Of a DNA stretch of 64,000 nt, positions 2,801-62,613 are shown in pieces. How positions within the stretch are numbered: position 1 is the first letter of the stretch; every line of letters begins with the position of its first letter. The stretch lies in the IMG/VR virus record IMGVR_UViG_2939127364_000001, one strand, 5' to 3'. This stretch comes from a virus (taxonomy: Duplodnaviria > Heunggongvirae > Uroviricota > Caudoviricetes). Made by a program: the position numbers and the translations under genes. Under the pieces are notes generated by a model that saw only the letters and a program-made list of their open reading frames with translations, searched no databases and was not told where the DNA came from.

Positions 2801-2849
2801 CCTGTCAGCGCCACAATGATAGTAAATTAGTACTTACTTATCTAGATAC

Positions 2850-3185
2850 TTAAGCCTCAAATACTTGTCTGAATGTAGCTGTTAAGACACAGTACCCCTG
2901 ATATCGCTTGACCGTATGACTGTCACATACAACTACAATCCGTTTTCCTCTTGGATTAACCCAATAGAACGACTCAACGCCTGCTCGCTCAGTCAGGAAG
3001 TCATCGATTGCATTAATTTCGTTGTATGATCTGGTAAAGGTTAACGACCATTCTTCTTTAATACGATTAAGACCTTGAGCCTGTCGCTGCTCGTAGTCAT
3101 CACCAAAATTAAGTACCGTTACATTCGGTTTTACGCTTTTTTCAGATTCGTAATCTGGATACCAATTAAACGTTTGTCTTTCCAT
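2850..3185 (-). CDS. Minor tail protein M-like
   Basis: 111 aa ORF between tape measure and L, same size and position as lambda gpM. Confidence 0.6.
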   Translation of the reverse strand: MERQTFNWYPDYESEKSVKPNVTVLNFGDDYEQRQAQGLNRIKEEWSLTFTRSYNEINAIDDFLTERAGVESFYWVNPRGKRIVVVCDSHTVKRYQGYCVLTATFRQVFEA

Positions 3186-3227
3186 CTCACATCCTTGTGA
3201 GACTGCCCCGGTCGGGGCAGTCGATAG

Positions 3228-6200
3228 TTAGTTACGTTGAGTGTTTGGGTTGAGTGATCCGCCAGGGCGTTTCTCTTGAGCGATAGTCTCAAGCGCGATT
3301 GCTTTCATCCGTTGAGCGGCATTGTTCCATATGCTTTCTGTATCGCCGGATTCAGTTGTGCTACCGTCACTATGGACGTTGATCTCAATTGATACCGGAG
3401 AAAGAACATTTCCTCCTCCACTCATACCATCGGTACTGAGCGTTACAGGGATTGTTCGACCATCAGGCAATGGAACATACGCCTCATTCATATCGCCTTC
3501 CCCAAACAACGCCAATTGAGGTGAGTTGGCGATACCGCCTTTCTGGTATGCCCGGAGCGGGATCACGCCGTCTTTTCCGAATATGCCACCATTTGCAAAC
3601 TTCGGAATTGCAGGAATACCATTCGTGCCATCGGCAGCAGAACTGGTCAGATTGTTGAACCCGGAAGTTGAGCCAGAAGAACCGGACATCAATCCATCGA
3701 ATCCACCACCAGCCCATACTGAAACCAAACCAGATGCAACTGTTGCGCCGAAATTCAACCACTTATTACCAGAGCCGGAAGCATTAGCTCCAAGCATTGC
3801 AAACGCGGCAGACAGCGCGCCGGTAACAGAACTGAGGTTCTGCATCGAGAAGATGGAGTCCTTCACGGCTTTTGTCTCGGCATCTTTGGCTTCAGTGCTA
3901 TCAAATAGCCCTGATACCCAGCTACCAATCGCATTTGTTGCAGTGCCAATTGCGCTGGTGGTCTGCTGTGTTGTTTGCCCCAATCCAGTTACCGAACTGG
4001 ACGTCTCCTTCGTGGCTTCTCCTACCGACTTGTCGCCATTAACAGTGTTGCTTATGCGCACACCTTGATTGGCAACGGCGGAAGCAACCCCGGTGAGCAA
4101 ATTACCACTCTGTGAACTACCAGCTGCGGTGGTTCCCATCCCCAACATGTTCATTAGAGGCAGCGTGATCTGCGACTTCACGACCATATTGGTGATATCT
4201 TTCAAAATGGACTGAGACAGGCTGGAGAAGCTCATCTTCCCGTTAATAACGAAATCAGTCAGGACATCAGTTAAGCCACTAAACAAATCAGTCCAGGTGC
4301 TTTCGATCTGCTCTGCCAGGTTTTCGTATTCCAGTGCCAACTTCTGCGTCGCAGTCCCCGTCTCTTTAATAAGCGCGGTATTGCCAGCAGCAATAAGTTG
4401 ATTGATCTTTTTATCGAACAACTCAATCTGGCTTTGTGAGGCTGTGCCTGACTCAATCGCAGCTTTACGTAAATCCATCAACGCTTTAAGGTTGCGATTA
4501 TAGGTTTCTTCGAAATCAGCAACTTTCTCTTCACGAGACGGCGTATAGCCAGCACTAATAATGGAATCCGCCTCCGGTGCCCAAGTGGAGATCATCTGCT
4601 CAACATTGCGGCGATTAAACATCTCGCGATATTCAGGTGTCGCATTTTTGAGGTCTTCAAGACGTTTTTTCGCCTTGTCGATCATCTCTTGAGTGATGAA
4701 CTCGTTAGGAACCGCATTAGCCAAATCTGTCAGCGATTTCGTTGTATCGCGAAGAGACTGATCAAACGATACCGTAGCCTTAGAGCTTTCACCCATTTGC
4801 CCCATAAGCTGATCGGCTTTGTCCAGAGCCTTCTGATATCCGGCCGCCAGTTTCTGTTGCGCTGCCTGTTCTTTCTTTGCTGCTCTCTCGGCTGCTTTTG
4901 CGGTACGGTTTGCTGCCTTATCTGCTGCTTCTGCATCAAGTTCACGAGCTTTTGTCAGAGTCTTAATTACTGCGATGCGGTCATTTTCTGACAACTGCTC
5001 TAATTTCACATCACCGTAAATTTTCTTCTGTCTTAATTGCTCCTTGAGTTGTCGAGGCCCAACAACAGGTTGACCTTGTAAGTCGTATAATGCGGTACCA
5101 TCGAGATTGACTCTTTGATACCTTTTAGAGTCCATCTGCTGTTTCCAAAAACCAGTCATAGTTTTGGAATTAGCATCAACTGGTGTGCTTGAAAACTCAC
5201 CAATTTTACCGCCATTAATAGAAACCAAGCCGTCCCCAGCTTTCACGCTAAGACTGATTTCAAGGTTCTCCATCCCCTCTTTTACAATCTTCAAAGCCTC
5301 GGTGGTGGCGTCTATCTTTGTCTGGGCTTCTTTTTGCCCCTGCATATCGTTCGACTCTTGGGTCTTTTTGAGCTCTTCAGAGTATGTGGCGAGTTCACCA
5401 AGCCCCTTCTCATAACGAGCTTTATACCCTTTGAGTTTTTGCTCGTCGGCCTGGGCGTACAAACGTCCAAGTTCTGCGTTGTTTTCTGCCCTTAATTTGC
5501 TTTTTTCGTGGTCGGACAAGTCCGACCGCGCGGCAATTTTCTCATTGCTTTTGGTGAGTCTTTCTATCTCTTTGGCGACTGAGGCTATTAATGCATTCCC
5601 TTTCTGGTTGACCGCATCAATATCCTCTCTATATTTCTTAGTAATGCTTTGTTTGATGGTTTCGGCTATGCCGCCATCAAGAGCTTTGGCGACTTCCTCT
5701 CTTTCTTTTCGCGCTTTTTCCAGTTTCTTTTTGCTGTCGTCAACATCGACACCAACTTCGTACGGTCCCGTGTATGCTGAAAAATGCAAGGTTTTGCCAG
5801 TCTCGACTTCTTTTTCCAGTCTGGAGATCTCTCGATCTTTCTTGCTCAGTTCGCTTTCCAGCATCGCGCGATCTGCCTGCGTCATCGCTTCAGGGATTTC
5901 TCTGACTTTGTTTACAACGTCTTCGACTTTCTTCCTCAGACTGCTCATGTGCCAGATCAGCGTCGAAACCGCCGTTACCGCAGCAGTAAAGAAGAACCCT
6001 ATAGGGTTTGCAGCCATGAACGCAGTCAAGCCAGCAAATGCATTGCGAATAGCAAAAATCAATGCAGGGATGGTAGATAGTCCCATGCGTGAGGCTCGAT
6101 TGAAGCGTTTAACGGCTGTCGTCGCAAGATCAAATGTCCCCTGTATTGTGGTGGATACCGTAGCAAAGGTGCTGATCATGCTATTAGCAGTGCCAATGAC

Positions 6201-7811
6201 ACCAGAAATCCCCGATTTGAGGAGTCTGAAGGCCATCGTGACAGCGACGGCTTTGCCGAAAGTGACAACAAGCTCCTGGTTTTTAATCAGCCATTTCGCC
6301 AGGTCACGCAAACCATCAATAGCCGTCGTCAATCCGCTTCCCAACGAGTGAGCAAAAGATGTACCCTCTGCGCTATTCATCAGGGAGGTGAGTTCTTTCA
6401 TTCCCTCTCTTAAAGAAGACAAATAACCAGTCTGGCCTACTTTGTCCGCGAACAGCGTAAAGGCTGTCTTCATTTGCGCCAACGTACCGGTAAATGTGTT
6501 CATCATTTCGGACGCAGCTCCCTCGTTCTGCATCTTCAACTCTTTGAACATAAGTGCCAGTGCGTTTTTGGCTTCTACCGTTCCAGATGCTACAGCTTTA
6601 GTTAACTCGCCCATTGTCAGACCAGCAGCCTTGGCCATTGCGTTCATTGCTGTCGGAATCGCCTCACCTAATTGCTGGCGAAGCTCTTCCATCGATACAA
6701 CACCCTTACCAGACATCTGCTGAACAGCAATGGATGCACGCTTCAGAAGTTCGCTATCACCACCAAAACGAGCAACGGAGTCCACCAGCGCCTTCAGAGA
6801 ACCATCGGTTGGATCTAAGCCAGCAGAACGAAACTTCACGAAGGAGTCTGTTAACGCCTGCATCGCGAACGGCGCATTTTGAGCCATGTCTACGATGTAC
6901 TTCATATCATCAGCGGCAGCCTGGCCCGGGTTGGACTTCTCCTTATTCAACCCTCGAAGCATCACCCGCATACGTTCCATTTCGGCCGCAGCTTCAACAA
7001 TAGGCTTCTGCCACCCAAACATGATGTCAGTAACCGTTCTGGCTGCATCTCCGATCTCGCCAAGCAGGAAAATGTTGCCACGAAGGCCAGAGAACATACC
7101 TCCTTCGTTACTTTTACCGCTATGGCCAGAAGCGCCGCTACGCCGCCCGCTACCACCATCGCCACTTCCAGATGTACGAACGCGTACCGGCTTGCTAATC
7201 AGTTGCTGACGTCCGATAACTTCGTCCATCTGCTCACGAACCTTTTTCAGTCCCTCGGCAGCCTGACTCGTTGTGACACCCCAATTACTGAGTCGCTTCG
7301 TCGTGGTATTAAGGCGCGTATTCATGCCACTCACGGACGCAGAGGCTTCTTTGACCTCCGTACCAAAGCGGCTTGCGCTTTTGCTTGCATAGGTCGCCCA
7401 ATCAGAGAAATCATTTAGCTCTGATTGCACTTTACGTAATGACGCGGTGAGTTTATCTACTGAAGAAGTTGTCGTATCGACGCGCTCAATCAGGGCTTTA
7501 AGACCAGAATTGAGGCTGGTGATGTTGCCACGCATTTTACGCGTAGCATCTGAAGCAAGCTCAAAACCGGCAGCTACATCCTGTAGTTTATCTGCCGTAG
7601 AATCGAGCTTGCTTTCCAGAACGCCAATGATACGGGCGACCGAACCCAAAGAGCGTTCAAAGGTTTGGATTTTTTGAGCAGGCTTTGTTACCTGCTCACC
7701 AAATCGAGTAAGCAGTTTCCCCGCACGATCGATTGACGCTGTAAACTGTTTGTCTTCCAGCGACAGGATAAACTCTACGTTTTGTGACATTCCCTTGTCA
7801 TCCTCTGCCAA
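3228..7811 (-). CDS. Tail tape measure protein
   Basis: 1527 aa, Ala-rich and coiled-coil-like with hydrophobic segments; sits between the G/T chaperone genes and M-L-K-I. Confidence 0.85.
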   Translation of the reverse strand: MAEDDKGMSQNVEFILSLEDKQFTASIDRAGKLLTRFGEQVTKPAQKIQTFERSLGSVARIIGVLESKLDSTADKLQDVAAGFELASDATRKMRGNITSLNSGLKALIERVDTTTSSVDKLTASLRKVQSELNDFSDWATYASKSASRFGTEVKEASASVSGMNTRLNTTTKRLSNWGVTTSQAAEGLKKVREQMDEVIGRQQLISKPVRVRTSGSGDGGSGRRSGASGHSGKSNEGGMFSGLRGNIFLLGEIGDAARTVTDIMFGWQKPIVEAAAEMERMRVMLRGLNKEKSNPGQAAADDMKYIVDMAQNAPFAMQALTDSFVKFRSAGLDPTDGSLKALVDSVARFGGDSELLKRASIAVQQMSGKGVVSMEELRQQLGEAIPTAMNAMAKAAGLTMGELTKAVASGTVEAKNALALMFKELKMQNEGAASEMMNTFTGTLAQMKTAFTLFADKVGQTGYLSSLREGMKELTSLMNSAEGTSFAHSLGSGLTTAIDGLRDLAKWLIKNQELVVTFGKAVAVTMAFRLLKSGISGVIGTANSMISTFATVSTTIQGTFDLATTAVKRFNRASRMGLSTIPALIFAIRNAFAGLTAFMAANPIGFFFTAAVTAVSTLIWHMSSLRKKVEDVVNKVREIPEAMTQADRAMLESELSKKDREISRLEKEVETGKTLHFSAYTGPYEVGVDVDDSKKKLEKARKEREEVAKALDGGIAETIKQSITKKYREDIDAVNQKGNALIASVAKEIERLTKSNEKIAARSDLSDHEKSKLRAENNAELGRLYAQADEQKLKGYKARYEKGLGELATYSEELKKTQESNDMQGQKEAQTKIDATTEALKIVKEGMENLEISLSVKAGDGLVSINGGKIGEFSSTPVDANSKTMTGFWKQQMDSKRYQRVNLDGTALYDLQGQPVVGPRQLKEQLRQKKIYGDVKLEQLSENDRIAVIKTLTKARELDAEAADKAANRTAKAAERAAKKEQAAQQKLAAGYQKALDKADQLMGQMGESSKATVSFDQSLRDTTKSLTDLANAVPNEFITQEMIDKAKKRLEDLKNATPEYREMFNRRNVEQMISTWAPEADSIISAGYTPSREEKVADFEETYNRNLKALMDLRKAAIESGTASQSQIELFDKKINQLIAAGNTALIKETGTATQKLALEYENLAEQIESTWTDLFSGLTDVLTDFVINGKMSFSSLSQSILKDITNMVVKSQITLPLMNMLGMGTTAAGSSQSGNLLTGVASAVANQGVRISNTVNGDKSVGEATKETSSSVTGLGQTTQQTTSAIGTATNAIGSWVSGLFDSTEAKDAETKAVKDSIFSMQNLSSVTGALSAAFAMLGANASGSGNKWLNFGATVASGLVSVWAGGGFDGLMSGSSGSTSGFNNLTSSAADGTNGIPAIPKFANGGIFGKDGVIPLRAYQKGGIANSPQLALFGEGDMNEAYVPLPDGRTIPVTLSTDGMSGGGNVLSPVSIEINVHSDGSTTESGDTESIWNNAAQRMKAIALETIAQEKRPGGSLNPNTQRN

Positions 7812-8067
7812 ATATTTGCATCAGTTGCTCTTTGGCGTCAGGGTCTGCCTTATCCTGGCTTGGATCGTAGACTTTATCTGTTACGACTGGTCTTCCAATC
7901 CTGAGTTGCAAACCCTCCATGAACGCCTTCACAGCCTCGCCATCCGCCTGGGACGCACGAGCGACTTGTAAGTTGCGGACATCCTCTTCCGCACGCAGAC
8001 GGTCTATATTGCGACTGAGCATCCAGAACATCGTGAGAGGAACGTTCAGTAGCTCTAATGGCGACAC
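7798..8067 (-). CDS. Tail assembly chaperone T-like frame (probably made as a G-T fusion by -1 frameshift)
   Basis: Frame is -1 relative to G and stays open upstream of the listed GTG start through the 3' end of G (translated by hand). Confidence 0.45.
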   Translation of the reverse strand: MSPLELLNVPLTMFWMLSRNIDRLRAEEDVRNLQVARASQADGEAVKAFMEGLQLRIGRPVVTDKVYDPSQDKADPDAKEQLMQIFGRG

Positions 8068-8147
8068 GGCGTAGTGAGCAACTACACGACTGAAATAGAA
8101 TCCGAGATCTATTGAGACGGTCCTTGTCCCGGATTCATCGCGGGAAA

Positions 8148-8465
8148 TTACTTTGCCCCTTCGCCAGCCGCTTTTTCGTTTTCTTCATCAATCACTTCCA
8201 TAGCGAAGGTGAAGATCTGCTGGAGTTGCGGAACAGTCAGTTTTTCAAGAACTTCGTCAGGTACTGAAGGGATAACCTTACGAACCAGATCTGCATAAGC
8301 TGTCACTTGCTCAACAGGAGACATGTTCATGAGATCTTTGCCTTCCATCTGCTTGATGGAAACAAAGAGGCCGACGGTCATTTCAACGATGGGATATTCT
8401 TTGCCACCAAATTTGATGCTTTTTTTCGGCGGCAGAATGGAGTCGAGATCGAGTAATTTGGTCAT
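8148..8465 (-). CDS. Tail assembly chaperone G-like
   Basis: 105 aa acidic ORF directly upstream of the tape measure gene, overlapped at its 3' end by the open -1 frame. Confidence 0.55.
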   Translation of the reverse strand: MTKLLDLDSILPPKKSIKFGGKEYPIVEMTVGLFVSIKQMEGKDLMNMSPVEQVTAYADLVRKVIPSVPDEVLEKLTVPQLQQIFTFAMEVIDEENEKAAGEGAK

Positions 8466-8526
8466 GGTTTAAATCCTTTTAAACTCATACAGAGGCCCAT
8501 CCATGGGCCTCTTGGGTTATCACAAT

Positions 8527-9273
8527 TTAGCTTGCGGCAGTTACAGAGACGGCTTTGGTCGCCTTCTTGGCACCGTCATTAGTTGTGAAGGTGATATTGG
8601 CTGAACCGACAGCTTTACCAGTTACCAGTCCGTTCTGATCTACGGTCGCTTTATCAGTCGCATCAGAGCTCCACACGCCAGTCTTATTGGTTGCATCGGC
8701 CGGGGTGAAGGTTGCGCTCAATTGAACTTTAGTGCCCACTTTTACGGTCGGTGAAGACGGGGTCAGCGTGACGCTCTCAACCGGCTTTGGGAGGCTCATT
8801 TTCCCCAACACGCCAGCGTCGTCCGGGTAAGCGGAAAACTCAACTGAGAACACGCGAACGTCGTCAGACTGGTAGGTCATGGTGAAGTTACCCGCGGTTG
8901 CTGCTTTAGGGATGGTCAGAACATAATCCGTCGCATCCTGCGGGGTCAGCACCAACTCTTTCGCAACGTCGATCAGGTTCACTCCCTGCGCAGACGTGAT
9001 GGTTACGGTATCTTCGCCAGAACTCAGCGTGGAACCTGGCATCAGATCGACCATGTTTTTCAACACGGATTCAGCCAGCGGCGCAGTAATGGTGATGTTG
9101 CGGCCCTGGATCAGCTCGGAGATCGTGGTCTGGCCCAGCTGGTCTACGGTCACTTTCAGCGTTTCGGTTGCGATTTCAACCTGAACACCACCTTTGGTGT
9201 AACCCAAATCCACACCACCAAACGACACCTTACAGGCACCAAGTTTGATGTTTTTTACATGGGTATTAGACAT
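8527..9273 (-). CDS. Major tail protein V-like with C-terminal Ig-like (Big_2) domain
   Basis: AAGGAG RBS before ATG at 9273 (MSNTHVKN...); C-terminal VTLTPSSPTVKVGTKVQLSATF...VWSSDATDKATVDQNGLVTGKAVGSANITF is Big_2-like as in lambda gpV. Confidence 0.7.
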   Translation of the reverse strand: MSNTHVKNIKLGACKVSFGGVDLGYTKGGVQVEIATETLKVTVDQLGQTTISELIQGRNITITAPLAESVLKNMVDLMPGSTLSSGEDTVTITSAQGVNLIDVAKELVLTPQDATDYVLTIPKAATAGNFTMTYQSDDVRVFSVEFSAYPDDAGVLGKMSLPKPVESVTLTPSSPTVKVGTKVQLSATFTPADATNKTGVWSSDATDKATVDQNGLVTGKAVGSANITFTTNDGAKKATKAVSVTAAS

Positions 9274-9347
9274 TGATGGAAAACTCCTTTTTCCGTTAAT
9301 TCTACGCATTCATTGCGCTAATAGTAAGTATATACTTACCAATTGAG

Positions 9348-9704
9348 TTAATTCAATAAGTAGCCAGCAAATTCAACAGGAATGCCTGCTTCTATTAATG
9401 CCCCATCATTTTTGGGATAAATGATTGGCATCGCCATCGGTCGTACAAGTCGAAAATACACACCACCAGATTCCGTTTCCTCTACTGGAAACATCTCAAT
9501 GATTTTATTGGCTTTCTCAACCGTCGTAGTAATTGACGAACCACGCACAATGATTGTGAATGATTCGTGATAAAAGCCCTGTAGCTCATGATCGATGCTG
9601 ATGCCGGTATTTGGATTAATAAGCAGGACGCCAGATTTCACATTGGCAGGCAAGTAGTGACAGAAAATGTCAGTCCCGACCGTGCCAATCTTTGCCTTCT
9701 GCAT
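9348..9704 (-). CDS. Tail terminator U-like (start uncertain)
   Basis: Position between Z-like and V-like genes; track ORF extends to 9854 but that would overlap the upstream gene by 120 nt, so the internal ATG at 9704 is preferred. Confidence 0.35.
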   Translation of the reverse strand: MQKAKIGTVGTDIFCHYLPANVKSGVLLINPNTGISIDHELQGFYHESFTIIVRGSSITTTVEKANKIIEMFPVEETESGGVYFRLVRPMAMPIIYPKNDGALIEAGIPVEFAGYLLN

Positions 9705-9732
9705 CAAACTTGCAAACGCTTCAATAAACACA

Positions 9733-10206
9733 TTAACCTCTCGTAAATCCGGCTTTTCTGGCAGCCTCAAGAATCGCTTCTGAGAACTGCTTCTCGCTAA
9801 TTTCCACCGCTCTTTCCAGAAAGTGTGGCCCAACACGGGGTTTAACACCGGCAATTGGTGGGTTTGTCACGTTCTTCATTCGAGAAAGATAACCGAGTCG
9901 GTATTTACCCAGCTCCATGTACTTAGCATAGTCACCTACTTCTACACCCGGATGCCCCTGACGTGGTTTTGCTCCAGACACAGAAAGCTCAATGCGCAGC
10001 CCTGAATAACCTTCTTTAATCACCCTGGCAAAGATAGCTGTCTCCAGAGATCCGGTTTCCAGCGGGGCCATTGCACGGCTGAGGCGCTCAACCAAACGCG
10101 CCAGCTTTTCCATGTCCCGAATAAGATATCGCTTAAATGCTTTCTGGCTGTTGTTGAGTCTATTCCCCGCACGTTTGAACTGATGCGCATCGTATTTCAG
10201 ACCCAT
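9733..10206 (-). CDS. Tail completion protein (Z / HK97 gp10-like)
   Basis: 157 aa ORF in the position of lambda Z; assignment by synteny only. Confidence 0.4.
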   Translation of the reverse strand: MGLKYDAHQFKRAGNRLNNSQKAFKRYLIRDMEKLARLVERLSRAMAPLETGSLETAIFARVIKEGYSGLRIELSVSGAKPRQGHPGVEVGDYAKYMELGKYRLGYLSRMKNVTNPPIAGVKPRVGPHFLERAVEISEKQFSEAILEAARKAGFTRG

Positions 10207-10541
10207 ATATTCGCCCCTACTTCAAGATGCCCAGGTCTTCCTCGTAGCCCCCAGCGGCGATGAACACTGGACACCTTTAATTTTTGACCTTCAAGGATCA
10301 GTACATCATCAAGTTGTACAGCCGCTTCTAAAGGGACAACTAACACAGCATCAAACAGCTCCAGACTCGCCTTACCACGACTACCAGAGCTATCAGCACG
10401 AACTGACGATTTCTCATTACTCTGTTCGAACTTAACCACGCCGACATTCGTCTTCCTGACGAATTGTAATTGCGCCTCACCGTAAACGTTCTTTGCGCCA
10501 AAGCGGTAGATCGCAATTTCTGTTTGCCATGAAATATTCAT
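10197..10541 (-). CDS. Head-tail joining protein (FII-like?)
   Basis: Internal ATG at 10541 with GGGAGAG RBS; small ORF between head and tail modules. Confidence 0.3.
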   Translation of the reverse strand: MNISWQTEIAIYRFGAKNVYGEAQLQFVRKTNVGVVKFEQSNEKSSVRADSSGSRGKASLELFDAVLVVPLEAAVQLDDVLILEGQKLKVSSVHRRWGLRGRPGHLEVGANIWV

Positions 10542-10620
10542 GCTCTCTCCCTGTTGTTGTCGGTCGCTCTCATTACTGGCCAAAAACCCTTTAGACCAAA
10601 AGTAAATAATGCGACTGGCG

Positions 10621-11454: not shown

Positions 11455-11888
11455 TACTCACCGCCTTGTGCTTTCAGGATGCCTTCAATCATCTCGACAA
11501 TTCCTTTCGCTTTGACACCAACCTGATTACCAATCACACGTAGACCGGCAATGCCTTCATTGTCTGCAATTGACTCCAACTCTTCTCGTGTGAAAGTCTG
11601 GATCTGTTTGGCCGGTTCATCTGGTGTCCCACGTTTCATTGGCACAATGTCAGGTGCTGCTGGCTCGGTAATCAGGTCTGCGGTCAACTCGCCACGATCA
11701 CTGTATGCGGCAGACGGAGAAACATTTTTGCCCTCGACTGTTGATGCTCGCATTGAGGCACAAATCCTTTGCTGATCGATAAAAGGCAACTCCGCTACGG
11801 ACACCCCGTTCTCGAACTGAACGCCGCACAACATTCCCGAATAACCGGAAAATTGCGGTTCTAATAAAACAATTTTTGCTGGTTTCAT
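11454..11888 (-). CDS. Hypothetical structural-module protein
   Basis: 144 aa ORF, translationally coupled to the downstream gene. Confidence 0.35.
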   Translation of the reverse strand: MKPAKIVLLEPQFSGYSGMLCGVQFENGVSVAELPFIDQQRICASMRASTVEGKNVSPSAAYSDRGELTADLITEPAAPDIVPMKRGTPDEPAKQIQTFTREELESIADNEGIAGLRVIGNQVGVKAKGIVEMIEGILKAQGGE

Positions 11889-11932
11889 AACGCATTCTCT
11901 CTACATGGGCGGCTTTCGCCGCCCAATATTGA

Positions 11933-12853: not shown

Positions 12854-12860
12854 TTCTCGC

Positions 12861-12894
12861 TCCTACAAAAAGGGTGGGCGTATAGCCCACCCTT
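12861..12894 (-). terminator. Intrinsic terminator / attenuator after the capsid gene
   Basis: Perfect 10-bp stem AAGGGTGGGC/GCCCACCCTT with 5-nt loop, followed on the minus strand by TTTTTGTAGGAG, which also carries the RBS of the next gene. Confidence 0.6.
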
Positions 12895-12926
12895 TAACAT
12901 AGATAATTACTTATCTACTGCACTGA

Positions 12927-13802: not shown

Positions 13803-13827
13803 CTATCAATTCCCTTTGATTTAGATG

Positions 13828-14715: not shown

Positions 14716-14736
14716 AAAAATTCCCTTTGTTACTTA

Positions 14737-16311
14737 TCACTCGTTCTCTTGAGTAGATGAGTCCCCATTCCCTCGGGGTTGATCTTGCCCGCTTTCTTGG
14801 GCTGCACCTTGATCATAAGTAAGCACTGACTTATTTTCAAGGGTATTTAGATCATTTTTTGGCGGAAAATTCAAGAGATCTTTATCAAATTCCTTTTTCA
14901 TCGCCTCAGTAATGTTCGGGAAAATCTTCTCAATAAGCATTTCCATCTGGTGACGACGTACAGAGTCCGGTGCCTGAAGTAATGACAGTTTCTCGGCAAC
15001 AGAAAATTCATCTGTAAGGCCACGAATATCGAAACTTTCTGGATACGCAATTAAAGAGTGGTCTTCGTCCAGATCTGCCCCCATCCATTTCGCAACCAGT
15101 AGCATGATTTGGCGTTCAGCCCTTTCCAGACGCTCTGCTTTTGTGACAAGCAAGCTATTTACACGCTGGAAGTCATACATTTTTGCGGCACCAGATGAAT
15201 TATCGATTCCCTGTGCGTTGTCCTGCTTCGTTCGCTCACCAGCTACACCAACTGAATGGTAGATTTCGTTAATCACCGTCTTAATCGTAGTGATGATCAT
15301 CTGAGCTTGTTTCGGGTCTGGTGACAGATAAAACGGCTGGTTTCCACCTTCAGAATCGTAGGTGAAGACTCGCTTTGTGCCCATTTCAAGCACTTTAGTG
15401 TGGTTTTCATCACCAGGTAAAAGCGACTGTACCGGTATAGCCAACTGGCTAAATGTCTGATCCTGAATAATGGCATCAAGGTTTGACAGATAGTTTGCAA
15501 CCGCACGATCAAGATAAGCGATATCATCGATCAACGATGGGCTGAAATACGGTGATTCACTTTCTCCAATACAATCAACAGGAAACACAGGAACTACGCC
15601 GAGATTATGCTCACCGCTATCCTCTAAAATAACTTTTGCCTGACGGCGACCTGCTCCACCAGCGCCCTTCTTCACTTCCTCACGGAACAGATACCACTCG
15701 TTTTGTGTCCACAGACGATAACGTTGGTATTCCTGACCTGTAGAAGTAAAAGGATCTGCGTCATCACGAGCGACTTCCACAATTAACGCCCACAACATAT
15801 TCCCGTCGTCGTCCCATGCCACATCCAGCATTTGCTGAGGTGAAATCCAGTAGGCGTAGGCGCGAGCATCTTTCTTTTTCTCGTCAGCTACTGACTCAAC
15901 ATCACCACTCATCGTGCTATCGACAACAACCCATATGCGACCGTAAATAGACGACTGCAAATCAATAGCGGCCATAAATGAGTCAATAGAGGCATTCTGG
16001 CGAGTCGCACGTTTCCAGAAATTGCGGATCTGCTCTGGTGCCTCTTCGATATTTCTATGAATGTCTTCTTTAAAGAGATATTTGTTGATGAGGTTTACCA
16101 CCTCACGAGTGTGGTTGAAGCGATAAGCACGTTCAACTCGCTCCTTAAACTCCTGATCTCCCTCTTTAAAGTAACGAAAGATATTGTCTGTAAACCAACC
16201 ACGCCCGCCAGCGTAAGTGCTGGCGAGGAAGTCCCAATGTTCTTTTTTCTTTTCGTATTCCGGGTGGCGTCGCGCCACCAGATCCTTAATTTGTTTGTCG
16301 TTCAATTCCAT
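14737..16311 (-). CDS. Portal protein
   Basis: 524 aa ORF immediately downstream of the terminase large subunit, acidic C-terminus. Confidence 0.6.
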   Translation of the reverse strand: MELNDKQIKDLVARRHPEYEKKKEHWDFLASTYAGGRGWFTDNIFRYFKEGDQEFKERVERAYRFNHTREVVNLINKYLFKEDIHRNIEEAPEQIRNFWKRATRQNASIDSFMAAIDLQSSIYGRIWVVVDSTMSGDVESVADEKKKDARAYAYWISPQQMLDVAWDDDGNMLWALIVEVARDDADPFTSTGQEYQRYRLWTQNEWYLFREEVKKGAGGAGRRQAKVILEDSGEHNLGVVPVFPVDCIGESESPYFSPSLIDDIAYLDRAVANYLSNLDAIIQDQTFSQLAIPVQSLLPGDENHTKVLEMGTKRVFTYDSEGGNQPFYLSPDPKQAQMIITTIKTVINEIYHSVGVAGERTKQDNAQGIDNSSGAAKMYDFQRVNSLLVTKAERLERAERQIMLLVAKWMGADLDEDHSLIAYPESFDIRGLTDEFSVAEKLSLLQAPDSVRRHQMEMLIEKIFPNITEAMKKEFDKDLLNFPPKNDLNTLENKSVLTYDQGAAQESGQDQPRGNGDSSTQENE

Positions 16312-16337
16312 TTGAATAACCTTAGATAATTACTTAC

Positions 16338-17594
16338 CTATCGAGAACCACCAAGAATAACACGGTTTTTGACTGGATACCTACGATGTACTGGATAGCC
16401 CAATGCGTCTGCACTATGCTCAATGCCACCTGTCTTATCCATATCTCGTGTTCCAGGCTTGTAGATGACTTTTTCCAGTGAATCAATCAAATGCTTGCAC
16501 TTCGGATCGATATACAGCCGGATATCTCCAGATGCGGTCATCAGCATTCGGTTAACAGCATTAACACGATCCGCAATTGGCGGGTGCTTTTTCGAATAAT
16601 CGACACGTAAGAATCCCTTCTCTTTGAATATGTCGACGTCAGACTCCCCGCGAGCATGTTGGCGATAAGCACCTGCCGGATCTGGAAATACCGTTATCTG
16701 TGATTTCCAGCGCCAGAAGCGTCTCTCAAGCTCATCACAAACCTCTGCCGTGTTAGAGGAAAAGAGCACCAATTCATCAATTGCCCATAGCTCACCATTT
16801 GGCTGAGGTTGCAAAATTACTGAAGACATCGGGTCAATGTTGAAGTCCTGCCCTACCCATATAGGCAACCGAGGGTTGAACTGAAGCGGTTTTACATGCA
16901 CGTTACGATCGAACGGGTAGTAAACGCGCCCGGACATGTTCTCAAAGCTCGCCAGGTACTCCTGAGCGAACGATTTCGGGTCCATATCGTTCTTAGCAGC
17001 TTCAATTTCCGCCGTAGGTACAAACGGAGAATCGGCAGTTACAAACTGCCAGCTCTTCCACTGTCCCTTTCTTTGCAGCTCTACGTTCTGGCCTATCGTC
17101 CACAGTTTGTGAAATTCCGAGAAGCCTTTTGGCGTACCAATGATCAGTGCACCGCCGCGTGTCGATGAAAGAGTAGGTCGTAACACCTTGTACCAGGTGT
17201 CAGCCTTCATATCCTGAAATTCATCAAGCACTACAAAATGCAACGCTACGCCGCGCAGAGTGTCAGGCTTATCAGCACCTTTGAGGGCGATCTCCGAACC
17301 GTTCTTCAACACGATTGTCATCGTGGTGTCGTTCTTTTTCCTAACCCACTTACGAGGCAGAACTTCCTGTAGATCGTCCCACAAAATCTGGCGAGCCATC
17401 TGGTAAGTAGGAGCGACATACCAGACCCTTTGCTTTTTTTCCTTTGCCGCCGCACGAATAATAGTGGAGATCGACAACCGGGATTTTCCCCAGCGTCGAC
17501 CAGCACAAACAACTTTAAATCGATGCGGAGACTGGAAGACTTTCATCTGTCCAGAATGCAGTTGCACAAGACTGAGCGAGGACGGGATTGCCAT
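16338..17594 (-). CDS. Terminase large subunit
   Basis: Walker A-like VVCAGRRWGKS, Walker B-like HFVVLDEF, C-terminal nuclease-like half with conserved acidic residues. Confidence 0.75.
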   Translation of the reverse strand: MAIPSSLSLVQLHSGQMKVFQSPHRFKVVCAGRRWGKSRLSISTIIRAAAKEKKQRVWYVAPTYQMARQILWDDLQEVLPRKWVRKKNDTTMTIVLKNGSEIALKGADKPDTLRGVALHFVVLDEFQDMKADTWYKVLRPTLSSTRGGALIIGTPKGFSEFHKLWTIGQNVELQRKGQWKSWQFVTADSPFVPTAEIEAAKNDMDPKSFAQEYLASFENMSGRVYYPFDRNVHVKPLQFNPRLPIWVGQDFNIDPMSSVILQPQPNGELWAIDELVLFSSNTAEVCDELERRFWRWKSQITVFPDPAGAYRQHARGESDVDIFKEKGFLRVDYSKKHPPIADRVNAVNRMLMTASGDIRLYIDPKCKHLIDSLEKVIYKPGTRDMDKTGGIEHSADALGYPVHRRYPVKNRVILGGSR

Positions 17595-18226: not shown

Positions 18227-18265
18227 AGATCCCTCTAAAACACACAGAGCGCGTCCATGCGCTCT

Positions 18266-18308: not shown

Positions 18309-18321
18309 GGTTGTTTAATTA

Positions 18322-18420
18322 GGTCTGGGCATGTCTTATTAAGCCTGCTTCCGTATATATTTAATAAGTTACTTATTATTTATATATACAGAAGCAGGTC
18401 TTTAAATAAGCTCCCAGACC
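18322..18420. repeat. Long imperfect inverted repeat (about 100 bp), copy 1
   Basis: GGTCTGGG...GCCTGCTTCCGTATATAT..TTAATAAGTTACTTATTATT..ATATATACAGAAGCAGG...CCCAGACC; between the end of the ParB/ABC operon and the TerS promoter region. Confidence 0.6.
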
Positions 18421-30338: not shown

Positions 30339-30464
30339 TTCACTCTCCGTAGTGTATTGGTTATTTTTATATTCTATGATCGTAAGTATGTACTTACAAT
30401 ACAAAAAAGCCCCGTAAGGATGGCGGGGCTGTCGTACTGTCGACTAATTACCACTTGCACATTA

Positions 30465-30929: not shown

Positions 30930-31259
30930 TTACTCGAATACTTCAAGAAACTCCTGAACGTCCCAGTGCTGGACGAGGTGAAGATAGACCTTAGAAATAA
31001 CGTCATTTTCGCTATCGCATGTGAAGTAGTACTTCTGGCTGCGGTTGTATGTGTCCACACAAAATTCGCTCATATCCATAAAGTCAGCATCTTCACCCAT
31101 GTCGCAAATCATCAAAGCAGGTGCGTCATCACGAGTCATCAGCTCAAGCACCCACCGCGAATTGATCAGAGTGGAAGACCAACCTTCCAGCTCATAGAAC
31201 TGGTCAAACTCTTTTTGAGTCAATTTCTTGATTTGGTTGATGTCGATATTTGCAAACAT
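30930..31259 (-). CDS. Small highly acidic protein
   Basis: About 109 aa from MFANIDI, with roughly 22 Asp/Glu against 8 basic residues; AAGGA RBS; palindrome copy overlaps the track-listed upstream ATG. Confidence 0.35.
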   Translation of the reverse strand: MFANIDINQIKKLTQKEFDQFYELEGWSSTLINSRWVLELMTRDDAPALMICDMGEDADFMDMSEFCVDTYNRSQKYYFTCDSENDVISKVYLHLVQHWDVQEFLEVFE

Positions 31260-58996: not shown

Positions 58997-60902
58997 AGCT
59001 GCGCCCCTCTTTAACTTCGACAGTGATAATTTCCCGGAACCACGATTTCATCTCTTTGTGGGAGATGATCATCACTGTGCCACGTTCACGCGCTTTGGCT
59101 TCCAGAATCCCCATGAGACGCTCCAGACCGGCTGTGTCGAGCGCGTCGTCAATTTCATCACCGATAAATAGCTCGATATTCTTACTGGCGCGACTGGCAA
59201 CCAGATCCTGCAAAGCCAGAGAGCACGCAATACGTACCTTACGCTTCTCACCACCAGACAAAGTCTGGAAGGATTTGCTGGAGCCTGTTTTGATTACGCT
59301 GATATTGAATTTGTCGCGATACTCACCTTTCTTCGTTGTCTCCATTGTCGACCATTCGGCAACGATATTGCCGTCCGACAGCGTGTTGAGATACTCCGCA
59401 GTCCTGATGTTCAGGAAAGGCGTAACGGAGGTCAGGATGTGTGAACGCACGCCTGCTGGGGAGTAAACCTGGCGGGCCTTCTCCAGCAACAGAGCCTGTT
59501 CCTGAATGCTCTTTAACTCATTTTTAAGTACTGCATGATTAGATTTATTGGCAGCCAGGTTGTCTTCATGGCGCTTAATAACGGCCAGAAATGGGTTTGC
59601 TTCCGCCATGATGCGATTCACTTCAGTACGCGCCCGCGCAACCATCGCTTCGACGGCCACAACTTCACGTTCGCGATGACGCAGCGCACTTAGCTCATTG
59701 GTCAGGCGTTCTATTGTGGAGATGATTTCTGAGACGTCGGGTGTGGCTGCGACCAGTGCAGACTCGATACCGAGTGCTTTCTCAAGACGAGTCTTGTGTT
59801 GAGCCACTGCCGCTGCTGATGTCTGCGCAAGGCCGATCTCATTGCGCGCTTGTTCAATGAAGCTCTCCTTCACCGTGGATAAATCTTCTTCGCAGTAGGG
59901 CTTTCCGCACGTAATGCAGGGTGCCCCGATCTTTGTGCTGACCTCTTCAGCTTTGGTTTTAAACGAGCGAGCACGGTTTATCGACTCGTTCTGTGCCGCT
60001 TCTGAAGTACGGATGCTTGAGCGGATCTCAGTAATAGCACTGCGCACCTTCAGCAGTTTGGCGTCATGCTCTTCTTTGGAGGCCAGCTTGCTGCGTTCGC
60101 CAGCAATCGCATTTTCCGTATCACGGATCTGTTCTGGCAGCGAGCGAATTTCCATCTCGACTTCAGACAGTGTTACCTCCGCGCCAGCCAAATCGGCTCG
60201 GGCCTTGTCCAGACGCTCGCCGCGATCGCGCTCCCAGCTTTCAGAGGACGCTTTGGCCGCCTCAATCTCTGACTGTGCAGTCTCGATAAGCGTGAGACAG
60301 GCGTCCATTTTGGATTTGGTAACGTCCATACGTGCGGCAGCTGCATTAGCACGCTCGCGGGCAATGGCATAGGCTCGCGTCAATCGGTCGACGCCAGCAG
60401 CTTCTTCAACGATGGTTTTGAGGCTCTTGTCGGACATACCGGGCAGATCTGGCATCGCTTCCTGACTGGCGTAGATGGACGCCATGAACACCTCTTTCGA
60501 TGCCCCAATCAGACGTTCTACGAACGTCTGTGTCAGCGTGTCCTTGCCTTTGGTCATATCACCGTCTTCACCACGGACGATTAGTCGGTTCTTGAACTCT
60601 TTGTGTTTACGATGGCGAATGATCGCGTATTTCTTACCTTCGTCTTCAACTGTAACCATCACACGGCAGTTCTTCTCATGGCCCGTCGACAGCACGTCAT
60701 CGCCTTTGACGCCATGTGCAGTCTCACCATACAGACACCACATTAAGCTATTCATCAGAGTGGATTTCCCGGCGCCATTGCTGGCAGCAGACGTATCGCC
60801 ACTGTTCACACCCTGGATCAGCACCAGTCCACGCTGGTCTAACTCGACTTCTGCGCTGGCGATTGCCATAAAATTTTCAACCTGGAGCTTTAAAAACTTC
60901 AT
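58986..60902 (-). CDS. SbcC/Rad50-like SMC ATPase
   Basis: N-terminal MKFLKLQVENF...GLVLIQGVNSGDTSAASNGAGKST (Walker A), long coiled coil, C-terminal LSGGEKRKVRIACSLAL and FIGDEIDDALD; track ORF is over-extended to 61148. Confidence 0.75.
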   Translation of the reverse strand: MKFLKLQVENFMAIASAEVELDQRGLVLIQGVNSGDTSAASNGAGKSTLMNSLMWCLYGETAHGVKGDDVLSTGHEKNCRVMVTVEDEGKKYAIIRHRKHKEFKNRLIVRGEDGDMTKGKDTLTQTFVERLIGASKEVFMASIYASQEAMPDLPGMSDKSLKTIVEEAAGVDRLTRAYAIARERANAAAARMDVTKSKMDACLTLIETAQSEIEAAKASSESWERDRGERLDKARADLAGAEVTLSEVEMEIRSLPEQIRDTENAIAGERSKLASKEEHDAKLLKVRSAITEIRSSIRTSEAAQNESINRARSFKTKAEEVSTKIGAPCITCGKPYCEEDLSTVKESFIEQARNEIGLAQTSAAAVAQHKTRLEKALGIESALVAATPDVSEIISTIERLTNELSALRHREREVVAVEAMVARARTEVNRIMAEANPFLAVIKRHEDNLAANKSNHAVLKNELKSIQEQALLLEKARQVYSPAGVRSHILTSVTPFLNIRTAEYLNTLSDGNIVAEWSTMETTKKGEYRDKFNISVIKTGSSKSFQTLSGGEKRKVRIACSLALQDLVASRASKNIELFIGDEIDDALDTAGLERLMGILEAKARERGTVMIISHKEMKSWFREIITVEVKEGRSYVV

Positions 60903-61131
60903 ATAACACCTCTGATATCGTGTGTTAACTTTTGACCATCTTTCAATCTGAACTCCGTATGCGCGGGGAAGGATCTGCGATTCAATAAGCCTTTTCTGGT
61001 TAGCCTTCCAAGATAAAACGCTACGGGATTTCCTCCTGAAGGGTATGGCTTGTGAAACATAACCGTCTGGCCTTTTTGAAGTTTTTTCATCACGATGGCA
61101 AACTCTCGAAAGCTCCCATAATAACGTTGCC

Positions 61132-62217
61132 TCACACAGCCTCCGCACTCTCTGCTTCGGTCAAGATCTCCTGACACAGTATGTCCAGCTTGCTCAGGTC
61201 GAAGCCACCGTCAGTGTCGTGAACGATCTTGCAGTACGCCGCAACGGACTCGCCCAGGCTGTCAATTTTGCTGGTTTCCGCAGTACTGGCAGCGCCTTCC
61301 ATCATCGATGCCTTGCGAATGAAGTTGCAGACGACACCCTTCGCGCCCATTGTTTTCAGGACGTTCTGAAGTTTGATGCCTTCTTCATCGCTCTCAACAA
61401 CGGCACGGAAGCGCACGTAGTTGCCGCGAATCTGATCGTCATCTACATCGTCCTCAAGGTTCACGAATTTAGGTGCCGAGGTTTCGTGGTGAGTGAATGA
61501 GCCGTCCGGTTTGACGATCATGAAGCCGGCCAGTGAACCAACATCCCCCCAATTCTGGTGTGTCAGCGCCCCGATACTTACCACTCCAGGCAGCACTTCT
61601 TTGTGGTTGTGGTAGTGCCCGGACAACAATAAACGGAAGCCGATATCTTTCAGTTCCTGTGCGTCGATGCCGACATCGGGCATGGTGGGGATCGCTTTGT
61701 TGATTGAGGTATGTACAACAACATCATGGTTGTCACCATCCAGCCCGGAACGCAGCGTTTTGAGATCGCTGATAAGTTCTGCGTGGTTATTACGCCAGCT
61801 AATCAGATGGACGGTTACGTCGCCCATTTTGATGGAATGAGGACGTTTGCCGCAGACGATTTCCACACCGATTGAGCGCAGAGAGGCTGCTGCATTGGCG
61901 CTGTATACGGAATTGTTGGTTTCGAGGTCGTGGTTGCCAGCCAGCATTACCACCTTGAGACCCAACTCTTTGATGATCCACTCGTAAGTTTCGGTCACGA
62001 AATGCAGAACGGAAGGTGATATAGCACCGCGAACATGGAAGGTATCACCAGCTACCAGCATGTGCTTACAGCCAGCAGCTTTCATCGCTTTGGCCGCCTC
62101 CTTCGTAGCGTCCAGTTGGATCTCCAGCCGAGAGTTAAGCCCGTCAGCGTTTGTTGTCGCAAAAGCATCCCAACGATGATAATGGGGATCTGATATTACC
62201 CCGTATGGCAATGTCAT
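61132..62217 (-). CDS. SbcD/Mre11-like metallophosphoesterase nuclease
   Basis: DPHYH, GDTFH, GNHD and GHYH calcineurin-like phosphoesterase motifs. Confidence 0.75.
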   Translation of the reverse strand: MTLPYGVISDPHYHRWDAFATTNADGLNSRLEIQLDATKEAAKAMKAAGCKHMLVAGDTFHVRGAISPSVLHFVTETYEWIIKELGLKVVMLAGNHDLETNNSVYSANAAASLRSIGVEIVCGKRPHSIKMGDVTVHLISWRNNHAELISDLKTLRSGLDGDNHDVVVHTSINKAIPTMPDVGIDAQELKDIGFRLLLSGHYHNHKEVLPGVVSIGALTHQNWGDVGSLAGFMIVKPDGSFTHHETSAPKFVNLEDDVDDDQIRGNYVRFRAVVESDEEGIKLQNVLKTMGAKGVVCNFIRKASMMEGAASTAETSKIDSLGESVAAYCKIVHDTDGGFDLSKLDILCQEILTEAESAEAV

Positions 62218-62613
62218 GTGTCTTTTCCTTTGTGGTTATTTTGATACAAATTCTAAGCGTGCATAAGAGGCATACAACCCAGACAACACGGCACACAAAA
62301 GAATATAAAGGCACATGATAATGACAAAAAAATAAGTAAGTAAATACCTATCAGATAGGGCAGCAACGATTTCTAAACGTCACAAGCAATTTTATGAGAG
62401 CAGTCATTTACTGATGACAAGAAATGAAAAAGGAGAACGGACGGTGAAGTTGTGAGATGACATCTACGGCGTTTGCGTGTGTCGTCTTCAAACGCATCCG
62501 TCGGCCACAGTTTCTGCTCTTGAATAAAATTCACTCATGCATTAATCCCTAAAGCTCTCAGTGTCTTTCTAAGACACCATATTTTATGCCCGGTAAAAAG
62601 CATGAGTTTGCCT

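Follow-up and report, generated by a model that had tools for sequence, protein, structure and literature searches.

Dispersed 20-bp palindromes in an SSU5-like phage-plasmid are candidate operators of an element-encoded dimeric regulator

In phages lambda, 434 and P22, operators of the Cro/CI type are dyad sites that are bound by a helix-turn-helix dimer and are clustered, three to six of them, in one or two immunity regions. The C1 immunity repressor of the phage-plasmid P1 instead controls many operators dispersed over the genome; these are 17-bp asymmetric sites of the ATTGCTCTAATAAATTT type and lie at promoters. The OB operators of RK2 KorB and the ParB/Noc sites are palindromes of 13–16 bp that are dispersed over about a dozen or more places on one replicon, are bound by dimers and serve global repression. 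Cluster A mycobacteriophages carry more than 20 copies of one short repressor site, the stoperator, throughout their genomes (L5 gp71 and the TipsytheTRex repressor); these sites are found at promoters and also between genes, in the short gaps of the early and late lytic operons, and they have been proposed to silence the prophage by blocking both initiation and elongation of transcription (PMC9283540). A stoperator is asymmetric and 13 bp long, is recognised by a monomer that has two DNA-binding domains, and works in one orientation relative to transcription (PMC9283540). Phage T1 and Citrobacter phage Stevie have 16–20 copies of one 22-bp intergenic repeat that the authors likened to stoperators; the phages are strictly lytic, and the repeats, whose function is unknown, lack symmetry and follow the direction of transcription (PMC4319613).

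We analysed a stretch of 64,000 nt (the window), which is part of an SSU5-like (SSU5/pMT1-type) phage-plasmid of E. coli. The window contains about 14 copies of a 20-base palindrome, and the whole phage-plasmid about 28; the consensus is a 20-bp dyad formed by the half-sites ATARGTAAGT and ACTTAYYTAT. A sequence-only reading had described this family as element-wide. The family proved to be real, at positions that had been given correctly to within a few bases, and far above chance level. We counted matches to ATAGGTAAGNNCTTACCTAT of at least 14/18 bases against second-order Markov simulations and observed 10, with 0.11 expected. A palindromised scoring matrix, with training sites solely from other lineages (pMT1, two Klebsiella lineages and Morganella), found 13 sites in the window at a threshold of 15 bits (null, 0.0) and 15 at a threshold of 12 bits (null, 0.08). 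A matrix trained on the window gave 13 matches of at least 14 bits in the 48 kb of a related element beyond the window, against 0.06 expected. The element-wide spread held as well: in Cyrano, an annotated close relative, 26/28 sites were intergenic, mostly between co-directional lytic genes, and 23 intergenic sites reached at least 15 bits (0.07 expected on intergenic composition). The sites were nearly confined to short intergenic junctions in the structural and DNA-metabolism modules. Their description as marking transcription-unit boundaries was only loosely right: they do lie at gene junctions, but these are internal to long operons, and one site falls within a coding region.

In number (about 26–30) and placement, the sites are strikingly similar to stoperators, with many copies that lie both at promoters and in the short gaps between genes of lytic operons. 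Unlike stoperators, they are 20-bp perfect dyads with a fixed half-site spacing and no orientation; moreover, they occur in proteobacterial hosts, their candidate repressor, a small XRE-type protein, has no relationship to gp71, and an elongation block is putative. As a phage-plasmid with what we propose to be dispersed operators, the element would resemble P1, although the sequence, the symmetry and the tight junction placement within operons differ from those of C1 operators. Like KorB/ParB systems, it encodes a protein with a ParB N-terminal domain (ParB_N) and has a site upstream of that gene; by contrast, the site is a 20-mer of another sequence, ParB_N has no detectable helix-turn-helix, and its gene is silent in the plasmid state. 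The T1 and Stevie repeats offer a likeness in that they, too, are multicopy and intergenic in an enterobacterial siphovirus, but their sequence is unrelated to the motif. The likeness to Cro/CI operators lies in the dyad, the constant spacing, the independent half-sites and a copy at the repressor's own promoter, which would allow autoregulation; here, however, about 28 junctions distributed over some 100 kb carry sites.

Twelve of the 14 instances listed in the sequence-only reading held; one is weak and another is the core of a different repeat. The latter (18361–18380) scored 10.9 bits and is the AT-rich centre of a long inverted repeat with arms CCTGCTTCYGTATAT. Eleven sites are strong (20–28 bits), including those starting at 2822, 9324, 12899, 16322, 21843, 48565, 50783, 55626, 56901 and 62332; a strong site in the portal gene was absent from the earlier list. 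The sites in the window, with their scores, are as follows.

2822–2841, GTAAATTAGTACTTACTTAT: junction of minor tail protein M and minor tail protein L, 24.0 bits with the other-lineage matrix; on the gene (minus) strand, followed by a hairpin (2812–2790); orthologous copies in pMT1 and both Klebsiella lineages.
9324–9343, GTAAGTATATACTTACCAAT: junction of tail completion protein and Ig-domain tail protein, 22.0 bits; core GTAAGTATATACTTA invariant in four lineages, flanks variable.
12899–12918, ATAGATAATTACTTATCTAC: 8 nt past the major capsid gene stop, 23.1 bits; directly precedes an intrinsic terminator (12892–12876, minus strand); orthologous sites in relatives.
14815–14834, ATAAGTAAGCACTGACTTAT: within the portal gene, 78 nt ahead of its stop, 25.9 bits.
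16322–16341, TTAGATAATTACTTACCTAT: overlaps the large terminase stop codon, 10 nt ahead of the portal start codon, 23.7 bits.
21843–21862, CTAAGTAATCACTTACTTAT: between two divergent genes, those of ParB_N (start 21825, minus strand) and a UvsW-like helicase (start 21908, plus strand), 20.3 bits; abuts TATAAT at 21863–21868.
30382–30401, GTAAGTATGTACTTACAATA: moderate site directly after a terminator, 15.0 bits; overlaps a promoter-like TTGTAA-17-TAGAAT (minus strand); the sole site in the accessory region; Klebsiella ortholog GTAGGTAAGTACTTACAATA.
48565–48584, ATAGGTAAACACTTACTTAC: overlaps the stop of an RNase H-like gene, 25.1 bits; RNA fold no better than shuffles.
49742–49761, AATAGTTTGTACTTATCTAT: moderate site at the stop of the Cyrano gene 80 homolog, 14.9 bits; one good half-site only; RNA fold no better than shuffles.
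50783–50802, ATAGGTAAGTGATTACCTAT: 11 nt ahead of the adenine methyltransferase gene start, 26.7 bits; promoter-like TTGCCA-17-AAAAAT (minus strand) directly upstream.
55626–55645, ATAAGTAAGCACATACCTAT: 17 nt ahead of the ThyX gene start, 27.3 bits.
55776–55795, AATGATAAGTACTCACTTAC: weak, doubtful site overlapping a promoter-like TTGTAA-17-TATATT (minus strand), 12.6 bits.
56901–56920, ATAGATAAGCACTTACCTAT: after a RuvC-like gene, 26.5 bits; on the minus strand, followed by a terminator-like hairpin (about 56892–56868); equivalent site in Cyrano.
62332–62351, ATAAGTAAGTAAATACCTAT: upstream of an SbcD-like gene, 27.7 bits.

Alignment of the same junctions in related genomes, a check that had been suggested with the original description, revealed orthologous sites in Yersinia pMT1, Klebsiella, Kluyvera and Morganella. 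Four to six lineages have sites at the same six junctions of the structural module. Such conservation at shared junctions reaches lineages with as little as 69% portal identity, and far more distant relatives have sites at analogous junctions. The site at 16322 was kept in pMT1, Klebsiella, Kluyvera and Morganella while the remaining spacer varied in sequence and length, and the same terminase/portal junction is occupied by an Acinetobacter-type variant in that lineage. The portal-gene site occupies the spacer of a promoter-like TTGAAA-17-TATGAT (14840–14812, minus strand; a 10/12 match and the top score within the first 20 kb) and persists in frame although the encoded residues differ (NKSVLTY, SKLALTY and NRYVNTY). 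Its retention despite these residue changes, together with the fact that sites form conservation islands inside variable spacers, indicates selection on the nucleotide sequence. Relatives in Acinetobacter, Massilia and Paraburkholderia have their own variants with the same 20-bp geometry (ATCAGTCAGTAnTGACTGAT, ATAAGTCACCGGTGACTTAT and GATAGTCAAAACTGACTATC, respectively), and all copies within one lineage share that lineage's variant, in a concerted manner. At 12 bits or more, the Acinetobacter variant was present at 12 sites in the locus that supplied the training sites (L009) and at 16 sites in an independent locus (L021), where 0.7 were expected by chance.

The sequence-only reading had offered three roles for the motif: an element-specific promoter, a binding site for a global regulator and an RNase III processing stem. 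The two 10-bp half-sites of the motif always abut: every inverted half-site pair had a gap of 0, and the +/-4 gaps among pairs were register echoes of the same sites. Deviations in the two halves were independent (133 Watson-Crick pairs, versus 137.8 +/- 4.2 with right halves permuted), and the half-site matrix was alike on both strands, without strand asymmetry. We saw no base-pair covariation relative to shuffles (77.2% versus 78.6% paired; score 0.129 versus 0.150). No -35, -10, Shine-Dalgarno or start-codon register was conserved around the motif and nothing was conserved beyond 20–22 bp, the distance from site to start codon ranging from 1 to more than 100 nt. Fixed spacing, independent half-sites and the lack of covariation and of a flanking register together indicate a DNA site for a symmetric dimer. 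These sequence patterns thus point to palindromes that behave like the DNA sites of a dimeric regulator, unlike an RNA hairpin or a promoter.

A role in RNA, as short hairpins for processing or stability of polycistronic mRNA or as translational repressor operators, has some points in its favour: most sites are transcribed, many lie 0–18 nt past a stop codon or 1–17 nt ahead of a start codon, and stems of 6–10 bp are possible at most of them. The element also encodes an FljA-like protein (25482–26042; Pfam PF03614, E 1.8e-68) that might bind such operators, and FljA represses translation of fliC mRNA (PMC2652032). We nevertheless consider this role quite improbable. In addition to the missing covariation, G·U was not favoured over A·C on the transcribed (sense) strand (18 each), the stems are weak (-1.1 to -7.2 kcal/mol), and 3/13 well-matching sites folded no better than shuffles. 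No Rfam family matched in the window, Acinetobacter relatives without an FljA-like gene still carry the dispersed motif, and the site beside the promoter of the helicase gene precedes the predicted -10. The RNase III stem is unsupported on the same counts, its 6–10 bp being far shorter than RNase III substrates. A structured RNA or RNase III element is likewise not supported; compensatory changes and a stable helix of about two turns are lacking. That the motif is a lytic-gene promoter read by a phage-specific transcription factor or polymerase seems scarcely credible, even though many lytic genes are preceded by sites and several sites overlap sigma-70-like hexamer pairs. The palindrome has no orientation relative to genes, the overlapping hexamers fall in differing registers from site to site, and several sites lie 10–17 nt before a start codon or overlap the upstream stop, some of them (at 10–11 nt, or with the stop overlap) leaving no room for a leader; furthermore, the element's annotation lists neither an RNA polymerase nor a sigma factor. 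Neutral or selfish repeats of the REP/MITE kind, or recombination boundary sequences at module junctions, without a regulatory role, would also be intergenic, palindromic and numerous, and some sites do lie where relatives differ in gene content, for instance after ruvC. Such an origin is very improbable, given that the sites are tied to orthologous junctions across lineages rather than patchy, that the coding-region site was retained at the cost of amino-acid changes, that copies within a lineage all show its variant and that a copy at the repressor promoter is invariant at +1.

That copy belongs to an XRE-type helix-turn-helix repressor gene, which adjoins the integrase gene outside the window and is a homolog of Cyrano CYRAN_45. 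Its promoter consists of TTTACA, then TGTAATAT and then the core GGTAAGnnCTTACC at about +1. The core was invariant in all XRE allele classes (56–100% protein identity), while spacer and leader varied. Three Acinetobacter-type sites lie in the divergent regulatory (immunity) region of the Acinetobacter XRE homolog, which is 48% identical and whose recognition helix starts differently. Among Acinetobacter plasmids (154 records), this homolog, but not the FljA-like protein, is found together with the motif. The role as a global-regulator site is thus supported by the fixed-spacing dyad, the independent half-sites, the concerted lineage variants and the invariant copy at the XRE repressor +1. We put it at a little better than even that the 20-bp palindromes are operators of one element-encoded dimeric regulator, most probably the XRE prophage repressor. 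Two findings count against this reading: of the motif, the copy at the XRE promoter retains just the inner 14 bp (11–16 bits), and the motif is the same although XRE alleles are only 56–65% identical, an uncommon situation for immunity repressors. The sites probably serve genome-wide silencing, and are stoperator-like yet palindromic. In the lysogenic (plasmid) state, the repressor would sit on about 28 sites across the operons of the structural and DNA-metabolism modules. At a site that overlaps a promoter, initiation would be blocked, the candidates being the internal promoter in the portal 3' end, the ParB/helicase divergent region, the regions upstream of dam and thyX, and the repressor's own promoter; where it lies in a tight gene junction, it would act as a roadblock against read-through transcription. 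The sites themselves, their statistics, conservation and DNA-type symmetry, and the copy at the repressor promoter are shown here; which protein binds them, and that it silences by occlusion or roadblock, we infer. Several sites lie just upstream of terminator hairpins, for which an operator function gives no clear reason and which counts against it.

The other protein to be weighed as binder is ParB_N (21145–21825, minus strand), whose N-terminal domain is ParB/Spo0J-like and whose C-terminal module is conserved but of unassigned fold. ParB, Noc and KorB use dispersed palindromes, and the sites could be parS- or KorB-operator-like loading or binding sites for DNA organisation, regulation or packaging during lytic growth, possibly with the ABC-type ATPases of adjacent genes. 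The N-terminal domain matches Spo0J, ParB and Noc (E 3e-9) and Pfam ParB_N, the protein is present in every lineage bearing a motif variant, and a site lies directly upstream of its gene in E. coli, pMT1, Klebsiella, Morganella, Acinetobacter and Massilia. ParB_N also diverges faster than its neighbours (46% identity in Morganella, versus 70–80%), and at one strand position in the C-terminal module, lineages with GTAAG-type motifs have T and those with GTCA-type motifs have I or V. We still regard ParB_N as an unlikely binder. It has no recognised DNA-binding or helix-turn-helix domain, Pfam and PDB profile searches with the C-terminal module were empty, and its AlphaFold model was unusable (pLDDT 39). 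The upstream site would be equally expected if ParB_N merely belonged to a regulated lytic operon, and the invariant site at the XRE promoter is left unexplained. In addition, the ParB_N gene is silent in the plasmid state: its expression in E. coli LF82 lysogens was at the floor (4.99; PMC9928086 supplement), and ParB_N therefore cannot be the lysogenic silencer.

In the same LF82 lysogens, and in favour of the silencing model, the repressor gene was expressed at 95.8 over a background of 9.8, and the structural and DNA-metabolism genes flanked by sites were at background (PMC9928086 supplement). Expression dropped across sites from gene 30 to gene 31 (54.6 to 6.2), from 34 to 35 (43.7 to 8.8) and from 64 to 65 (31.5 to 7.5); equally large drops occurred without a site between genes 81 and 82 and between genes 102 and 103 (PMC9928086 supplement). 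With drops both at sites and elsewhere, the gene-level lysogen RNA-seq does not discriminate. Counting against the model, genes 34 (43.7) and 81 (117) lie directly downstream of sites yet were expressed, and the helicase gene, whose promoter region is overlapped by a site, was expressed at 46 (PMC9928086 supplement).

The dispersed palindromes share a 20-bp dyad with the consensus ATARGTAAGT|ACTTAYYTAT. Simple consensus matching at 14 or more of 18 bases identified 10 sites in the window, against 0.11 expected. To avoid circularity, we also used a matrix built only from sites of other lineages; this matrix detected 13 sites scoring 15 bits or more in the window, where 60 simulations gave an expectation of 0.0. 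A window-trained matrix, applied to the 48 kb of a related element lying outside the window, returned 13 matches of at least 14 bits where 0.06 were expected. In Escherichia phage Cyrano, an annotated close relative, 26 of the 28 sites were intergenic, and the strong intergenic sites numbered 23, compared with 0.07 expected under a null model trained on AT-rich intergenic DNA.

The window matched SSU5-like phage-plasmids, among them Cyrano, phage SSU5, pMT1 of Yersinia pestis and over 800 plasmids from Escherichia, Klebsiella, Enterobacter, Yersinia and Salmonella; the terminase-portal junction was present in more than 900 plasmid records. The gene layout was taken from comparison with the annotated Cyrano genome.

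Gene layout of the window, from the Cyrano comparison
1 to about 18.2 kb, minus strand: tail and head genes
After the tail and head genes: ParB_N/ABC-ATPase operon
About 22-48 kb: accessory region, with the FljA-like gene, metG, apbC, a umuD-like gene and a type I restriction system
48.5-64 kb: DNA-metabolism module

The motif proposed in the sequence-only reading is thus present and enriched, and 12 of the 14 instances listed there are members of the family; the one at 18361-18380 belongs to a separate repeat, and that at 55778-55797 is weak. A strong site in the portal gene (14815-14834) had been missed. The claim that the motif is spread across the whole element held; site density is high in the structural and DNA-metabolism modules and near zero in the accessory region. 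The separate repeat is a long inverted repeat (18344-18398 and 50100-50154) with 15-nt arms, CCTGCTTCYGTATAT, and a 25-nt AT-rich core weakly resembling the motif. Its window copies are found upstream of terS and after the dam gene; a third, at Cyrano 31159-31211, separates the ParA operon from the replication genes, and pMT1 also has copies. Possible functions of this repeat are termination, regulation or a part in packaging.

Alignment of orthologous junctions confirmed that sites are kept in pMT1, two Klebsiella lineages, Kluyvera and Morganella. The conserved junctions were tail M to L, tail completion to tail protein, capsid to Ig-like, the portal 3' end, terminase to portal, and the ParB/helicase divergent region. 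Within the aligned spacers, the site formed a conserved island, while the surrounding sequence and its length varied. The portal site is in frame within the C-terminal tail of the protein, where residues differ between lineages (NKSVLTY, SKLALTY, NRYVNTY) and the nucleotides track each lineage's own motif variant; persistence of the motif despite these residue changes therefore indicates selection on the DNA sequence. Distant relatives carried their own 20-bp palindrome, with identical geometry and at analogous junctions.

Lineage variants of the palindrome
Acinetobacter: ATCAGTCAGTAnTGACTGAT
Massilia: ATAAGTCACCGGTGACTTAT
Paraburkholderia: GATAGTCAAAACTGACTATC

At a threshold of at least 12 bits, the Acinetobacter locus used for training has 12 sites; an independent stretch of 50 kb, for which chance predicts 0.7, has 16. 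Such comparisons lend clear support to the dispersed SSU5-group palindromes as a candidate regulatory system. Just downstream of two sites lie minus-strand hairpins (2790-2812 and about 9303-9318) whose pairing is preserved by compensatory changes from one lineage to another (GGCGCT...AGCGCC versus AACGTC...GACGTT; GCGCA/TGCGT versus GTGTC/GACAC), and the loop of the hairpin at 2790-2812, ACAGGATGT, is conserved.

Three roles had been suggested for the motif: an element-specific promoter, an RNase III processing stem or a binding site for a global regulator. A sigma-70 promoter was prompted by TTGTAA-17-TAGAAT/TATATT at two sites and by TTGAAA-17-TATGAT around the portal site, the top-scoring sigma-70-like sequence of the first 20 kb. 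Promoter-like hexamers also occur at or beside the sites at 30382, 50783, 55626 and 56901, and TATAAT adjoins the ParB/helicase site. At other sites a promoter would not fit: one, for instance, overlaps the terminase stop and lies 10 nt ahead of the portal start. With the sites in sense orientation, no position outside the 20-22 bp was conserved, so there is no fixed register for a -35, a -10 or a Shine-Dalgarno element. Because the hexamer registers vary between sites and the flanks are unconserved, the motif itself is not a promoter. The portal-gene element (14812-14840, minus strand), which lies in the 3' end of the gene and reads TTGATA-17-TATGAT in Morganella, is positioned for transcription of the scaffold and capsid genes; a terminator follows these at 12876-12892.

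An RNA hairpin had seemed plausible because, by eye, the G·U pairs of the sites inspected first seemed to lie on the sense strand. A full count on the transcribed strand of the 23 Cyrano sites gave equal numbers of G·U and A·C mismatches (18 each) and 133 Watson-Crick pairs between halves, compared with 137.8 +/- 4.2 when right halves were permuted among sites. Covariation among these 23 sites of one element showed no excess (77.2% paired versus 78.6% in shuffles). The predicted hairpins were weak (-1.1 to -7.2 kcal/mol), the RNA folds of three good sequence matches were no better than those of shuffles, and an Rfam search gave no family matches. Half-sites abutted at every site. Variable spacing, raised by a Klebsiella site readable as 9-bp arms with a 4-nt gap, was ruled out by a half-site scan in which all +/-4 gaps were echoes of an internal TAAG-TAAG periodicity at sites also having gap 0. 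Taken together, these observations and the missing flanking register argue against both the RNase III stem and the promoter. The regulator-binding role stands as the candidate: abutting half-sites that do not covary fit recognition in duplex DNA, half-site by half-site, by what would be a symmetric dimer.

We considered four element-encoded candidates for the binder: an FljA-like protein, the XRE repressor, the ParB_N protein and a small winged-helix protein upstream of terS. FljA is the repressor of phase-1 flagellin. The FljA-like protein (25482-26042, plus strand) is a full-length FljA homolog (Pfam PF03614, E 1.8e-68) and was attractive because FljA represses translation of fliC mRNA (PMC2652032); we rejected it, as its gene is absent from Acinetobacter relatives that retain the dispersed motif. 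The FljA-like gene is conserved among SSU5-type plasmids whose hosts, Klebsiella and Y. pestis, lack flagella.

The XRE-type repressor gene (CYRAN_45 homolog, outside the window) adjoins the integrase gene and was found in all groups, including 154 Acinetobacter plasmids. Its promoter comprises TTTACA, a 16-nt spacer, TGTAATAT and then, at about +1, GGTAAGnnCTTACC, which is the motif's inner 14 bp. This core was invariant in every XRE allele class (56-100% identity), while spacer and leader varied. The Acinetobacter homolog is 48% identical and differs in its recognition helix (KRPNVLSM versus KNANNLSL); three sites of the Acinetobacter type lie in its divergent regulatory region. A viral-contig scan for distant repressor homologs yielded known allele classes only. 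In E. coli LF82 lysogens (RNA-seq, supplement of PMC9928086), expression of the repressor gene was 95.8, compared with a background of 9.8. The ParB_N protein (21145-21825, minus strand) could also be the binder, given that it is conserved throughout and that a site lies directly upstream of its gene in every lineage, but that gene was at the expression floor in lysogens. Comparison of the candidates thus favours the XRE repressor as the putative binder, with the ParB_N protein as its main rival. The latter has a GGEHRWRAA box and a conserved C-terminal module (HQTMRFKV...NAGEAL), and its gene heads an operon that also encodes another ParB_N protein and two ABC-type ATPases and leads to terS. 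A ribbon-helix-helix fold for the module, hinted at by the sequence pattern, found no confirmation in Pfam and PDB profile searches, which were empty; its AlphaFold model, from a shallow alignment, had a pLDDT of 39.

In the plasmid state, the XRE repressor would occlude promoters and, once bound, may act as an elongation roadblock. This mechanism is drawn by analogy with mycobacteriophage L5-type repressors, which use operators and stoperators (PMC9283540), the same mixture of operator-type and junction-type sites as here. Stoperators, reported for actinobacteriophages, are asymmetric, monomer-bound and orientation-dependent, whereas the sites here are palindromic and orientation-free. Phages T1 and Stevie have comparable repeats of unknown role (PMC4319613). 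The literature searched contained no description of the motif or of SSU5-group regulation, including lysis-lysogeny control, and the motif string gave no matches. At the gene level, lysogen RNA-seq showed expression falling across the sites between genes 30 and 31, 34 and 35, and 64 and 65; equal falls occurred elsewhere without sites, and two genes downstream of sites were expressed. These data are compatible with a stop function and do not discriminate, since most genes were at background and drops also occurred without sites. The element's top expressed gene by far in lysogens was CYRAN_43 (Cyrano 40268-40822, outside the window; 7,084 normalised reads versus background 9.8), which encodes 184 residues with no Pfam match.

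We tentatively propose, at somewhat less than even odds, that a stoperator-like network, with an origin independent of the mycobacteriophage system, silences the whole SSU5 supergroup. A small XRE dimer on about 28 junction palindromes would block initiation and elongation, and sites and repressor would co-evolve as a unit defining cross-genus immunity groups. The supergroup includes Y. pestis pMT1, Salmonella Typhi pHCM2-type plasmids, and Klebsiella, E. coli and Acinetobacter phage-plasmids with resistance genes; SSU5-type elements are common, with many in the last three hosts. A putative 20-bp operator with a candidate repressor provides a specific map of the regulon and a way into direct experiments, and the lineage-specific variants form a natural series for repressor co-evolution with dozens of sites. 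If the junction sites stop elongation, they would represent a second, independently evolved stoperator strategy, using a symmetric dimer rather than an oriented monomer, and would bear on how bound repressor halts RNA polymerase.

The type I restriction-modification system is complete (M, S and R; 38649-44765, plus strand) and forms cargo, with the umuD-like gene on one side and the DNA-metabolism module on the other; it is common to the window and plasmid pTIC and absent from CP099126 and Cyrano. Identity to pTIC is only about 75-77% in the DNA-metabolism module and about 97% elsewhere. At 56666-56932, the window lacks two ribonucleotide reductase genes that Cyrano and pTIC both have between ruvC and mazG. 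The most over-represented 8-mer in the window is the Chi sequence GCTGGTGG, with 15 copies (6 plus, 9 minus) against about 1.5 expected from base composition.
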